This document shows positions 10,548 to 46,274 of a stretch of DNA of 64,000 nt, piece by piece. Below the pieces are notes generated by a model. It worked only from the letters and a program-made list of their open reading frames with translations, ran no database searches and was not told the DNA's origin. The translations under genes were made by a program, and so were the position numbers. The stretch covers positions 14,025 through 78,024 of the forward strand of contig JBAZVM010000002.1 in NCBI GenBank assembly GCA_041660885.1, read 5' to 3'. How positions within the stretch are numbered: position 1 is the first letter of the stretch; each line of letters begins with the position of its first letter. This stretch comes from Patescibacteria group bacterium (lineage in GTDB: Bacteria; Patescibacteriota; Patescibacteriia; UBA9570; JAHJKD01).

Positions 10548-10576
10548 TTGACTAGTCAAGTAATATTTGTTAGACT
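10548..10576 (+). promoter_or_regulatory. sigma70-like promoter of the tRNA-Arg/Met/His operon
   Basis: TTGACT (10548-10553), a 17-nt spacer, then TAGACT (10571-10576). It lies about 25 nt upstream of the leader element. Confidence 0.45.
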
Positions 10577-10598: not shown

Positions 10599-10724
10599 GC
10601 CCTCGTAGTTATCTGCTCCGCTTTCACTCGCGTTCAAGCTTCGCAGGATTAAACGGATAAGTATTTGGGTATGTTCCTTCGAAGCCTCGCAGATATGCGA
10701 GGCGAAGAAGAAGCCCTCGTAGTT
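10599..10724 (+). repeat. tRNA-5'-associated structured element, copy 1 (102 nt, 10611-10712), flanked by a 12-nt direct repeat
   Basis: gccctcgtagtt occurs at 10599-10610 and again at 10713-10724, where it forms tRNA-Arg nt 1-12. The interior is homologous to 44954-45058. Confidence 0.7.
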
Positions 10725-10787
10725 CAACGGATAGAACATCAGCCTTCTAAGCCGATGATTGAGGTCCGACTCCTCACGAGGGCACCA
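10713..10787 (+). tRNA. tRNA-Arg(TCT), CCA encoded
   Basis: Manual cloverleaf: acceptor gccctcg/cgagggc, D arm gttc..gaac, anticodon loop cTTCTAa, T arm tgagg-tccgact-cctca, then ACCA. Confidence 0.85.
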
Positions 10788-43976: not shown

Positions 43977-44954
43977 ATGAGATTATACTTTAAGGCATTG
44001 TCCGATGGCTGGAAACTGACTAGCAAACATACTTGGCTTTGGTTTTTCGGCTTGTTCGCCCTGTTTATCGTGGGCAATGGCGGAGAATTCGATTTGTATT
44101 TTAAAAACGTCGGCCGGCTTTCCGGAAACAACTCAATTTTCAGTGCCGCTTTCTGGCAGCAAGGAGAATGGGTGGAAATAATTAATCGCTTGCAATCGTT
44201 ATGGACGGAAAACTGGATAATGACATTATTCATGGCTGGCATTTTTGTTGCCGCTTTATTATTTGTTCTGTATTTTGTTGTTATTTCTCAAATTGCCTTA
44301 ATCTACGCCGCCAATCAAGGGCAAAAAAGTAGTTTATCTTTTCATCAATGCATCGTGGCGGGCAATAAATTTTTCTGGCGCGCTTTAATTATCAACATAA
44401 TCAGCAAACTGATCGTAATAGCCGTTCTTTTAATTATAGCCATACCATTATTTTTCTTATTAAGCAGCGGTACTTATGAAGCCACTTATTCCATTTTGGC
44501 CTCGATATTATTAATACCGGCCGTGATTATCGTTTCTTTTTTAAACAAATACGCGATTAACTACGCGGTGATTGATAATGAAAAAATATTTCCGGCCATA
44601 AAAAAAGCGTTTAAACTATTCGGCCAGAATTGGCTGGTCAGCTTGGAAATGGCCCTGATAATTTTCATTCTTTCCCTTTTACTCGGCTTATTTATTCTGG
44701 CGGCCACGGCCATTGTATTGGCTCCTTTCTTGGCTTCATCCATCTCCACGGCTTCGGCTTATGCCGACCCGCTAGCGAATATTTTAACCGTGTTAATGCT
44801 GGCCGCGCTGGTATTAATCGTTGGCATGGTCTTAGCTGCCTCCATATTTTCCGCTTGGCAATTAACTTCTTGGACATACCTGTTTAAGGAATTGACTGCA
44901 GGGCCGAAAGAAGGTAAGCTAATACGCGTCTTGAATGGAAAAAGGGGCATATAA
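43977..44954 (+). CDS. hypothetical polytopic membrane protein
   Basis: 325 aa with at least 6 hydrophobic helices. Its last codons and stop overlap the left direct repeat of the tRNA-associated element. Confidence 0.5.
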   Translation: MRLYFKALSDGWKLTSKHTWLWFFGLFALFIVGNGGEFDLYFKNVGRLSGNNSIFSAAFWQQGEWVEIINRLQSLWTENWIMTLFMAGIFVAALLFVLYFVVISQIALIYAANQGQKSSLSFHQCIVAGNKFFWRALIINIISKLIVIAVLLIIAIPLFFLLSSGTYEATYSILASILLIPAVIIVSFLNKYAINYAVIDNEKIFPAIKKAFKLFGQNWLVSLEMALIIFILSLLLGLFILAATAIVLAPFLASSISTASAYADPLANILTVLMLAALVLIVGMVLAASIFSAWQLTSWTYLFKELTAGPKEGKLIRVLNGKRGI

Positions 44955-45067
44955 TCTGCTTCGCTCCTTACTACGTTCGGAGCTTCGCAGGATCAAGTCT
45001 ATTTATTTAGGCCTAGCTCCTGCGAAGCCCTGATCCAAAGGATCATGGGCGAAGCAGAGGGCATATA
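44945..45067 (+). repeat. tRNA-5'-associated structured element, copy 2 (105 nt, 44954-45058), flanked by a 9-nt direct repeat
   Basis: gggcatata occurs at 44945-44953 and again at 45059-45067, where it forms tRNA-Ile nt 1-9. Perfect 9-bp terminal inverted pairing ctgcttcgc/gcgaagcag. Homologous to 10611-10712. Confidence 0.7.
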
Positions 45068-45132
45068 GCTCAGTCGGTTAGAGCACAGCCCTTATAAGGC
45101 TGGGGTCCCTGGTTCGAGTCCAGGTATGCCCA
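45059..45132 (+). tRNA. tRNA-Ile(TAT)
   Basis: Acceptor gggcata/tatgccc, D arm gctc..gagc, anticodon stem cagcc/ggctg with loop cTTATAa, T arm cctgg-ttcgagt-ccagg. No encoded CCA. Confidence 0.85.
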
Positions 45133-45241
45133 CTGAAATATAACTTAAAATAGAATATTAACCACTCTTTTATTTCTAGTTAGATGGAACACTTCTTTTT
45201 GATTTACTTGTAGTAGATTCCCTGCCAGATACTTTAAAACA

Positions 45242-45296
45242 ATCCGTTTTCGCTCTTTTGAGCTCATCAGTTCCGATACCTATCGGAAGAACGGAT
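45242..45296 (-). ncRNA. hammerhead ribozyme, type III topology
   Basis: Minus strand: AUCCGUU C / UUCCGAU-AGGU-AUCGGAA / CUGAUGA / GCUC-AAAA-GAGC / GAAA ACGGAU. All invariant core nucleotides and three helices are in canonical order. Confidence 0.8.
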
Positions 45297-45298
45297 GG

Positions 45299-45333
45299 GG
45301 GAGAGAGTGACGAGCGGGGGTCACATCTCTCCC
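45299..45333 (-). other. 13-bp GC-rich stem-loop between the stop codon and the ribozyme
   Basis: On the minus strand: U8 then gggagaga(t)gtgac-ccccgctc-gtcactctctccc. The T-run precedes the stem, so this is not a canonical intrinsic terminator. Confidence 0.5.
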
Positions 45334-45352
45334 AAAAAAAAGAACGATGTAT

Positions 45353-45898
45353 CTATTTCCAGCGGTAAAGAACCCGCTGGTCTTGGGGAGAAATGCAGAG
45401 GCGGATCTCCTTGGATCCGTCCTCGTTCTCACCCTGCATTATCACGGCCCAATCTCCGTAGAGACAGACCGCCGAACTAACCTCCTGTGCGGCCTGGAAG
45501 ACGATCGCCGCGATCTCTTCATGGGTTACCGGCGGCTGTGCCGCGAAAACCGTGAACTTGTCGTCCCTCATCCGCTTTTCAGCGGACGGCCGCCTTTCGA
45601 ATCCCGGCGCCGCGATCATGGCCATCACGCGGCCGGGCCAAGCCTGCGCCGCGATGAGCGACCCGACGATGAGAGCCTCGGGGTTCTCCTTTTCGAGGCG
45701 TTCCAGCGCCTCGGTCGAGGCGACGTCCGGTACGATTTTCGTTCGGACAAGCTCGACACCGGTCGGGTGCATTCCCGCCGGCTCATCCTCGAACCGGGCG
45801 TTCAGCACCGTCCCGGAAGGAGGGACTTCGTAGACTTCTCCCTCGACGGAGAGGAAACGAATCAGGTGGGGGGTAACATTAACCACATTCTTCCTCAT
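45353..45898 (-). CDS. hypothetical protein (N-terminal N-x-T-P-H family seen in phage/mobile contexts), GC-rich
   Basis: An AAGGAGG SD lies 8 nt upstream of the ATG at 45898 (MRKNVVNVTPH...). The ORF track starts 9 codons earlier, at 45925. GC-rich codon usage. Confidence 0.6.
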   Translation of the reverse strand: MRKNVVNVTPHLIRFLSVEGEVYEVPPSGTVLNARFEDEPAGMHPTGVELVRTKIVPDVASTEALERLEKENPEALIVGSLIAAQAWPGRVMAMIAAPGFERRPSAEKRMRDDKFTVFAAQPPVTHEEIAAIVFQAAQEVSSAVCLYGDWAVIMQGENEDGSKEIRLCISPQDQRVLYRWK

Positions 45899-46200
45899 GA
45901 CTACCGACCTCCTTGCTCTGATCAAAATGATTTTTATGTTTTGTTAAGCTTAAATGGTCTCTTTATCTTTTTAACTTAACGACGAAATATACACTAAAAA
46001 TGGCTTTATGTCAATAGTAAATGATTAAATATAGGCTAAAAATAGCAAAAAAATATTTATTTTGGCTAAAATAAACCATTTTTACTGGTACAAAATCTGA
46101 AGGCGGCTTTTCTACTATATCCATGCTACGCGCGACCTCCTATTCTAATTCTAAAATCTTTGCTAAAATAGGTTCCAGTAGCGTCGTATAAAGATACATT

Positions 46201-46274
46201 TGGGTGTATAGCTCAGTTGGTTAGAGCGTCACATTGACATTGTGAAGGTCTCTGGTTCGAGTCCAGATACACCC
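46201..46274 (+). tRNA. tRNA-Val(GAC)
   Basis: Acceptor gggtgta/tacaccc, anticodon stem tcaca/tgtga with loop tTGACAt, T arm tctgg-ttcgagt-ccaga. Confidence 0.85.

Follow-up and report, generated by a model that had tools for sequence, protein, structure and literature searches.

Directly upstream of an isoleucine transfer RNA (tRNA) gene, the stretch analysed here (64,000 nucleotides (nt) of contig JBAZVM010000002.1 from a Patescibacteria group bacterium, hereafter the window) carries a short, non-coding, hairpin-rich element, which we call copy 2. A related element, copy 1, is placed in the same way before a tRNA-Arg gene. The features at the two loci are listed below.

43977-44954, forward strand: membrane-protein gene, 325 amino acids (aa), ending ...NGKRGI; its final codons fall within the outer repeat, and the element's first base completes its stop
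44945-44953, forward strand: outer direct repeat gggcatata of copy 2, a duplicate of tRNA-Ile nt 1-9, joined to the native upstream flank
44954-45058, no strand: element copy 2, a 105-nt non-coding quasi-palindrome of two inverted hairpin modules, from the family model and the fold
44955-44991, no strand: module 1 hairpin, with outer stem TCTGC/GCAGG, TTC/TTC internal loop, inner stem GCTCC/GGAGC and an apical loop
45018-45058, no strand: module 2 hairpin, an inverted copy of module 1, with outer stem T(C)CTGC/GCAGA, GAA/GAA loop and GCC/GGC
45059-45133, forward strand: intact tRNA-Ile gene, anticodon TAT (ARAGORN, Rfam); its nt 1-9 are the inner repeat copy gggcatata (45059-45067)
10599-10610, forward strand: outer direct repeat gccctcgtagtt of copy 1, a duplicate of tRNA-Arg nt 1-12, from sequence match
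10611-10712, no strand: element copy 1, 102 nt, assigned to the same family by the covariance model (71.9 and 54.1 bits)
10713-10787, forward strand: tRNA-Arg gene (TCT), abutted at +1 by the element; its nt 1-12 are the inner repeat copy at 10713-10724

Copy 2 abuts position +1 of tRNA-Ile, with the layout ...aaaag GGGCATATA / atctgcttcgc ... gcgaagcaga / GGGCATATAgctcag.... The initial annotation had read gggcatata at 44945-44953 and again, as tRNA-Ile nt 1-9, at 45059-45067, and both the sequence and the tRNA calls bear this out. Since ARAGORN and Rfam place the gene at 45059-45133, the second copy is tRNA nt 1-9, and the repeat stops at exactly 9 nt, as different bases (g and a) precede the copies. 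The end of the upstream gene had also been read correctly, the left copy encoding the last residues of the gene at 43977-44954 and, with nt 44954, its TAA stop: at 44952-44954 the T and the first A come from the repeat and the final A is the first base 3′ of it. Copy 1 follows the same plan, gccctcgtagtt / 102 nt / GCCCTCGTAGTT (tRNA-Arg nt 1-12), and the aligned inserts have in common ATCTGCT.CGC, AGCTTCGCAGGAT, CGAAGCC and GGCGAAG. Copy 2 matches the family model on each strand, with 76.2 and 69.0 bits, and the covariance model finds exactly two matches in the 64 kb, both of them these copies. A chance origin of the repeats was considered and is ruled out by two counts: for any one position and spacing, the frequency of an exact 9-mer direct repeat in the window is 2.4e-5, and a second copy of nt 1-9 in the 400 nt upstream is found at just these two of its 8 tRNA genes.

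Copy 1 is located in the leader of a tRNA-Arg/Met/His unit, and a promoter-like site (TTGACT-17-TAGACT, 10548-10576) stands ahead of its outer repeat; a search inside both window elements revealed no promoter- or terminator-like sites. Given this upstream promoter-like site and the lack of such sites inside, both elements are probably transcribed in pre-tRNA leaders and cut off at +1.

Comparison with orthologous loci, cited like the other collected loci by L numbers, shows presence or absence of the element directly in the alignment. The gene order S1 - FtsH - membrane protein - tRNA-Ile(TAT) ... tRNA-Val - LOG - RluD is kept in relatives, in which the site upstream of tRNA-Ile reads as follows.

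L161-L163, membrane protein 49% identical to that of the window: empty, with the stop, 8 nt, then tRNA-Ile +1
L166/L167, membrane protein 44% identical to that of the window: empty, with the stop, 13 nt, then tRNA-Ile +1
L160, membrane protein 67% identical: a related element of about 99 nt between two copies of GGGCGCATAGCTCA (14 nt), ending at +1
L164, membrane protein 47% identical: a GIY-YIG cassette of about 450 base pairs (bp) flanked by GGGCATATAGC (11 nt), at the same +1

Inverted ends of 10 bp (CCGAGCGTTT/AAACGCTCGG) bound the L164 cassette, which contains an 86-aa GIY-YIG open reading frame (ORF). Since empty orthologous sites exist, copy 2 is, on this comparison of sequences, an insertion. 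The initial annotation had proposed such a comparison and allowed that the 9-mer might match by coincidence if it occurred upstream at loci free of the element; the element-free orthologues L161-L163 and L166/L167 have no upstream 9-mer, and the duplication is therefore a product of the insertion.

It had further been claimed that the insertion remodelled the 3′ end of the membrane-protein gene, and here we differ. Excising the element with one repeat copy gives ...AAA AGG GGC ATA TAG CTC..., where TAG is tRNA-Ile nt 8-10; the insertion thus left the KRGI residues as they were and altered the third base of the stop codon alone, from TAG to TAA. The window protein does run 2-5 residues past the ends of its orthologues, and L160 keeps TAA TAA 5 nt upstream of its repeat. 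Because the orthologues end earlier and L160 still has these stops, the extension of the ORF into the leftover tRNA fragment is, as far as the aligned sequences tell, a reflection of the loss of an ancestral stop. Restoring GCTC after GGGCATATA turns the window repeat into the 14-mer GGGCATATAGCTCA, and the element then starts with TCTGC, as in L160. This makes it plausible that a single ancestral insertion is shared with L160 and was followed by a 4-nt deletion (GCTC) in the window.

The two window elements belong to a wider family. A search pattern was drawn from the motifs common to both, and the real family was picked out among chance matches in GC-rich genomes; a second pattern, used in metagenomes, gave further copies, including contigs identical to both window loci (L120, L132). 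A covariance model (R1), built from 29 copies and searched in the collected loci and the window, yielded 76 non-redundant copies. The elements are about 100-136 nt long, have no ORF and consist of two inverted modules of about 45 nt. Hosts are found among Omnitrophota, Planctomycetota, Verrucomicrobiota, Alpha- and other Proteobacteria and Patescibacteria, the last including Andersenbacteria (L079) and Saccharibacteria (L108), and the family is multi-copy: in one Omnitrophota metagenome-assembled genome (MAG), at least 10 copies are spread over 7 contigs. A phage origin was considered and dropped, as the six pattern matches in IMG/VR were not family members.

Exactly half of the copies (38/76) lie within 4 nt of a tRNA end, 30 at 3′ ends and 8 at 5′ ends, and 12 further copies lie within 300 nt of one, mostly in arrays; random intervals from the same loci abutted a tRNA end in 0.9% of trials. 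Fifteen isotypes carry an element, to which transfer-messenger RNA (tmRNA) is added by a weak element-like match in L182, and both element orientations relative to the tRNA are seen. Copies at 3′ ends come after A76 where CCA is encoded and after the discriminator where it is not. All six Patescibacteria copies stand before +1, and 3′-end placement is seen in other phyla. One partial copy (L102, 4338-4395) breaks an ORF just after its start (MDLDALRHSASHV / element), the ORF being intact in L122 (about 1160-1210), so that insertion is not strictly limited to tRNA ends. Single sightings include three head-to-tail element-like units with a 102-nt period in a Phenylobacterium MAG (L053, 963-1254), with no tRNA detected nearby; a family member in a cultured Mesorhizobium sp. 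isolate (L060, 3533-3646); and, in the complete genome of Planctomycetales ZRK34 (L062), a match to the pattern only, for which model R1 gave no support at E up to 0.001.

Direct repeats accompany six of the eight 5′-end copies (9, 12, 12, 12, 12 and 14 nt), all six being the Patescibacteria cases, and their outer edge is always +1. At 3′ ends, 7/30 copies have a repeat of 10-21 nt whose outer edge is the 3′ terminus of the gene; L083 has an additional 12-nt 3′-end repeat beside its other element copy, which the automated screen did not score. The inner edges fall at tRNA nt 9-14 or 24-25, in the D-arm region, or at nt 53-65, in the T-arm; we read these regions as conserved parts of all tRNA genes. 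The intact tRNA gene stays beside the element and the short terminal fragment remains joined to the old flank. For copies right after tRNA-CCA, a distal repeat sought up to 6 kb downstream was found in L028 alone; a 14-mer 1.1 kb away in L110 lies inside an unrelated GC-rich coding region and was taken as a coincidence.

Insertion has also recurred at single termini, giving arrays in L010, L028, L083, L125 and L157, with identical units in L125 and L157. In a Candidatus Portnoybacteria contig (L168, JACQXN010000014.1, 1143-1868), two tandem GIY-YIG cassettes stand upstream of tRNA-Cys, each preceded by a 24-25-nt copy of the tRNA-Cys 5′ end; the second GIY-YIG ORF runs into the tRNA-Cys gene and has its stop codon there, at nt 19-21. 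In the complete genome of the cultured Roseivirga pacifica (L182), a 15-nt repeat of the tmRNA 3′ end, in copies 737 nt apart, surrounds a GIY-YIG element of about 720 bp.

No duplication unanchored at a tRNA or tmRNA terminus occurs among the copies found, in keeping with the earlier observation that the duplicated segment begins exactly at +1. As duplications are anchored at tRNA termini and none elsewhere, the mechanism is tied to tRNA gene boundaries, as the initial annotation had argued, with the +1 anchor in 6/6 Patescibacteria copies and also in the L164 and L168 cassettes. The annotation had named the 5′ boundary; anchoring at a terminus stands, and its restriction to the 5′ end does not. 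The link is broader, since members of the family in other phyla have the 3′ terminus as their anchor.

The fold was examined for copy 2 and for the family. For copy 2 alone, a four-way junction is the minimum-energy fold (-53.8 kcal/mol, z = -7.2, equal on both strands). The initial annotation had noted a 9-bp terminal pairing, ctgcttcgc (44957-44965) with gcgaagcag (45049-45057). These ends are indeed complementary, over 10 bp in fact (tctgcttcgc/gcgaagcaga), yet this is not the conserved fold. RNAalifold on 29 copies gives two hairpins, one per half, which with pair counts define module 1 (alignment A2, columns 3-55) and module 2 (columns 93-145). The two-hairpin model pairs 95.4% of cells, and both sides have changed in 10 of its 22 pairs; it scores 0.398 for covariation, whereas shuffles give 0.139 and slid partners no more than 0.10. 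The decisive covarying pair, 97:142, is AU in 10 copies, CG in 6, UA in 5, GC in 4 and GU in 2. A cloverleaf with end-to-end pairing was rejected as the conserved fold: its pairs 6:142, 52:97, 1:147 and 2:146 are unpaired in 12-23 of the 29 copies, and it sets the bases of columns 97 and 142 against invariant partners.

Each module thus has an outer stem, an invariant 3x3 internal loop (TTC/TTC, or GAA/GAA on the other strand), a GCC/GGC stem and a variable apical hairpin, which in module 2 of copy 2 is CTGATCC-AAA-GGATCATG; the two modules are mutually inverted and their stems covary. The covariation within a strand, the use of both orientations and the invariant loops suggest that the element would be recognised as a folded single strand, either DNA, as for REP or the ends of IS200/IS605, or RNA. 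Rfam contains no family for it, at gathering score or at E up to 10: gathering-score matches in the window are tRNAs only, and those inside the element are microRNA matches at chance level (E at least 2.8). The motif GCGAAGC recurs in the modules (window 45021-45028 and 45050-45056, and the family consensus). As DNA, d(GCGAAGC) is well known to form a mini-hairpin of unusual stability. The covariation seen across the family favours the long module hairpin over this mini-hairpin, which is only a lead.

A GIY-YIG gene recurs beside the element. Among the 42 loci ascertained by the element, six have a GIY-YIG ORF of 80-128 aa within about 200 nt of it, and in L026 and L059 more module copies lie on the far side of this ORF. 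The reverse test started from homologues of the GIY-YIG protein, mostly of Omnitrophota, from which three loci were chosen without regard to their DNA. All three read tRNA or tmRNA 3′ end, element-like sequence, GIY-YIG gene, all co-directional:

L180: tRNA-Asp, element, GIY-YIG
L181: tRNA-Ser, element, GIY-YIG
L182: tmRNA, weak element-like hairpins (18 bits), GIY-YIG

Related loci with a GIY-YIG ORF are L164, L168, L026, L059, L078, L088, L110, L113 and L180-L182. The proteins match Pfam GIY-YIG (PF01541) and resemble the UPF0213 proteins of PDB 1ZG2 and 1YWL, deposited as hypothetical; the Patescibacteria-type and Omnitrophota-type proteins are homologous, 43/43 being matched by the profile of the other group. 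In L180, a 38-nt inverted repeat (97%; 875-912 and 1247-1284) brackets the GIY-YIG gene. Small GIY-YIG genes away from tRNA exist as well, in L170 and, within a conjugation locus, in L172. The L170 ORF has, with no tRNA, a perfect 19-bp inverted repeat (ATATATCCCCACACCAATT / AATTGGTGTGGGGATATAT, 1183-1201 and 1459-1477), an indication that inverted ends on small GIY-YIG cassettes are a more general phenomenon.

Taken together, these results make it likely that 44954-45058 is a solo, non-coding copy of a family of hairpin mobile elements residing at tRNA ends and moved by a GIY-YIG nuclease encoded elsewhere. The window copies would be non-autonomous, mobilised in trans by a nuclease encoded elsewhere in the genome, which would read the folded hairpin modules in single-stranded form. 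This nuclease, or a partner, might break the tRNA gene in the D-arm for the 5′ type or in the T-arm for the 3′ type, where the inner repeat ends fall, and repair or fill-in could then duplicate the stretch from the break to the gene terminus.

Several observations weigh against this reading. Mobility is deduced from comparative data alone, no movement having been observed, and the copies were found via fixed sequence motifs, so that the sample is biased to one subfamily. The 64-kb window contains no GIY-YIG ORF, which is why its copies are called solo elements; no cognate nuclease for the Patescibacteria-type copies was found among the loci examined, and the ends of the L164 and L168 cassettes are unlike those of the window elements. 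Direct repeats are absent from 23 of the 30 3′-end copies, so duplication is not obligatory, and where present they vary from 9 to 25 nt, unlike the fixed duplications of classical transposases. The studied GIY-YIG homing enzymes (I-TevI) make 2-nt staggered cuts, which alone are unable to give duplications of 9-25 nt. Each arm of the L180 repeat joins the terminal 24 nt of tRNA-Asp to the initial 14 nt of the element, the target end being copied in inverted and not in direct orientation. Two simpler rules for the anchor also failed: a fixed-distance ruler from the T-loop, since the 3′ anchor is nt 76 in genes that encode CCA and nt 73 in those that do not, and the tRNA 3′ end as a primer, an idea taken from the L180 arms, which misfits genes without CCA and 5′-end insertions.

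Other explanations were weighed on the same evidence. Movement by break repair, as in homing, would have the element and the terminal tRNA segment copied or ligated from a donor, with the junction inherited from it. Inner repeat edges within the conserved D- and T-arms (nt 9-14 or 24-25, and nt 53-65), the identical array units of L125 and L157 and the occupation of the same tRNA-Ile site in three related lineages all fit such a route, and phage SegB, as described in passages of its report (PMC13096335), cuts within tRNA genes, giving rise through microhomology to duplications of tRNA plus segB. Had the donor been of another isotype, however, the acceptor stem would be mismatched, and the repeats always match the local tRNA, across 15 isotypes and at two in the window itself; most 3′-end copies, moreover, have no repeat. 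We therefore regard this route as unlikely. An element kept by selection as a functional structured RNA, either a pre-tRNA leader or trailer module or the 5′ untranslated region of the nuclease mRNA, and not mobile at all, seems to us quite unlikely, even though both hairpins covary strongly, the element is part of a transcription unit (copy 1 follows a promoter-like site, and neither promoter nor terminator occurs within the element) and comes before the nuclease ORF in the direction of the tRNA. The window and L160 copies also keep the fold with differing apical hairpins although the flanking proteins are just 67% identical. Hairpins of single-stranded DNA recognised by an enzyme would, however, show covariation equally, and the two orientations relative to the tRNA would amount to two different RNAs. 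An RNA so maintained also sits poorly with presence or absence among orthologous loci, terminus-anchored direct repeats and tandem arrays, the copy interrupting an ORF start in L102 and the lack of an Rfam match.

The scar of a tyrosine or serine integrase island that used the tRNA gene as its attachment site is a third account. In general, tRNA genes are classical integration sites of which part is duplicated; the interval after tRNA-Ile is variable and GC-rich, and an integrase gene lies about 130 nt upstream of tRNA-Ser in L181. In the window, though, it is the 5′ end that is duplicated, and the element precedes the tRNA instead of lying on the side of the island. Filled and empty sites differ by the element and repeat only, no integrase adjoins either window copy, and the 15 isotypes have unrelated repeat sequences, unlike what a core-site recombinase would leave. 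With these features disfavouring it, an attachment scar is very improbable.

For this nuclease, the best precedent appears, by analogy, to be phage SegB. In the parts of the SegB paper drawn on here (PMC13096335), the T4/T6 protein, a free-standing GIY-YIG endonuclease with a wide association with tRNA genes, cuts inside them at RAWTSGAAC, the breaks leading via microhomology to tandem duplications of the tRNA-plus-segB unit; these parts make no mention of the exact tRNA terminus or the anchored repeats seen here. In both systems a GIY-YIG gene outside introns adjoins tRNA genes of many isotypes, and the cutting of SegB at a conserved motif of the tRNA gene has its counterpart in inner repeat ends that fall in the conserved D- and T-arms. 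Compared with a SegB-like cassette, the window shows the association with tRNA and no nuclease gene, which is present only in related loci. Our genes are chromosomal in bacteria (the element pattern gave no family member in IMG/VR) and are accompanied by hairpin-module repeats, which also occur as solo copies. The proteins described here are bare catalytic domains of the UPF0213 type, 80-90 aa long, and lack the extra DNA-binding region that Seg proteins carry.

The element resembles REP/REPIN-RAYT systems in its short palindromic hairpin units, arranged as inverted doublets with covariation, and in its dispersed non-coding copies, which also flank a small nuclease-type gene; here too covariation implies recognition of a folded single strand. 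The flanked gene, in contrast, encodes GIY-YIG (PF01541) and not a Y1 HUH transposase, and tRNA termini are targeted with nucleotide precision and target duplications, while REPs are generally extragenic without such targeting or duplication. For IS200/IS605 the comparison stops at the hairpins, as there are target duplications, the flanking bases differ and no TnpA/TnpB was seen. Like miniature inverted-repeat transposable elements, the copies are small, non-coding and multi-copy, with long inverted ends and in many cases direct repeats of the target sequence; they differ in that no target duplication of fixed length is made (it is variable or often lacking) and in that one repeat edge is always the tRNA gene terminus. 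No DDE or HUH transposase gene was seen near element copies; the adjoining ORFs are GIY-YIG, flanked by modules, and to our knowledge GIY-YIG is not a known transposase.

Several mobile elements use tRNA genes as safe landing sites: tyrosine-integrase islands, which duplicate part of the tRNA, at 3′ ends, and Ty3 and Dictyostelium TRE upstream of eukaryotic tRNA genes. The element shares with them that the tRNA gene is left intact. It differs in having neither an integrase or reverse transcriptase nor an isotype-specific core site, in its size of just about 105 nt and in the use of both 5′ and 3′ termini.

Downstream of tRNA-Ile, the interval of about 1.07 kb to tRNA-Val (45134-46201) has a core of 60-67% GC at 45400-45900 versus about 40% around it, and a Pfam search of its ORFs gave no match. 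A hammerhead-core-like match at 45236-45271 on the reverse strand (ACUGAUGAGCUCAAAAGAGCGAAAAC) reaches 22.9 bits with Rfam HH9, against a gathering score of 52, and covers only part of the model. The L161 equivalent of this interval contains MFS and PrcB_C genes instead. The initial annotation had placed both elements at junctions of core and accessory DNA; on the copy 2 side, variation of the tRNA-Ile to tRNA-Val interval between relatives agrees with this. The TAT (UAU) anticodon of the tRNA-Ile is the same in every relative compared at this locus (window 45059-45133; L160, 3046-3121; L161, 3986-4059; L166, 2426-2500), UAU being an uncommon bacterial way of reading AUA.

Palindromic non-autonomous elements and tRNA-associated free-standing GIY-YIG genes are both known kinds; what is unusual here is the targeting rule, by which insertion occurs to the nucleotide at either end of any tRNA or tmRNA gene while the gene is kept intact. 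We know of no bacterial transposase or integrase that follows such a rule, and a full-text literature search, with subscription journals largely outside its reach, brought up no account of tRNA termini occupied by hairpin elements or GIY-YIG cassettes with repeats anchored at the terminus. We put forward, tentatively and as the less probable outcome, that UPF0213-type GIY-YIG proteins and hairpin repeats form an unrecognised class of prokaryotic mobile element whose target is set by the termini of the tRNA product and not by DNA sequence. Speculatively, abundant mature or 3′-processed tRNA might pair with its own gene, the edges of the resulting R-loop marking both termini; this would fit the anchors at +1, at A76 if CCA is encoded and at the discriminator if not. 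Host tRNAs would then be natural guides for insertion beside any tRNA gene.

The targeting rule can be tested in cultured carriers, namely Roseivirga pacifica (OZ247500.1, around 1,009-1,011 kb), the Mesorhizobium isolate and possibly Planctomycetales ZRK34, and if recognition is by structure or tRNA guidance, the system might serve as a tool for placing DNA at safe, conserved sites. The results also suggest a role for stand-alone GIY-YIG/UPF0213 domains, for which we found no assigned function and whose structures are deposited as hypothetical, as the nuclease of a selfish element. In Patescibacteria themselves, the presence of this family would explain several annotation oddities: structured tRNA leaders of about 100 nt, short pseudo-tRNA fragments and the termination of ORFs within them.

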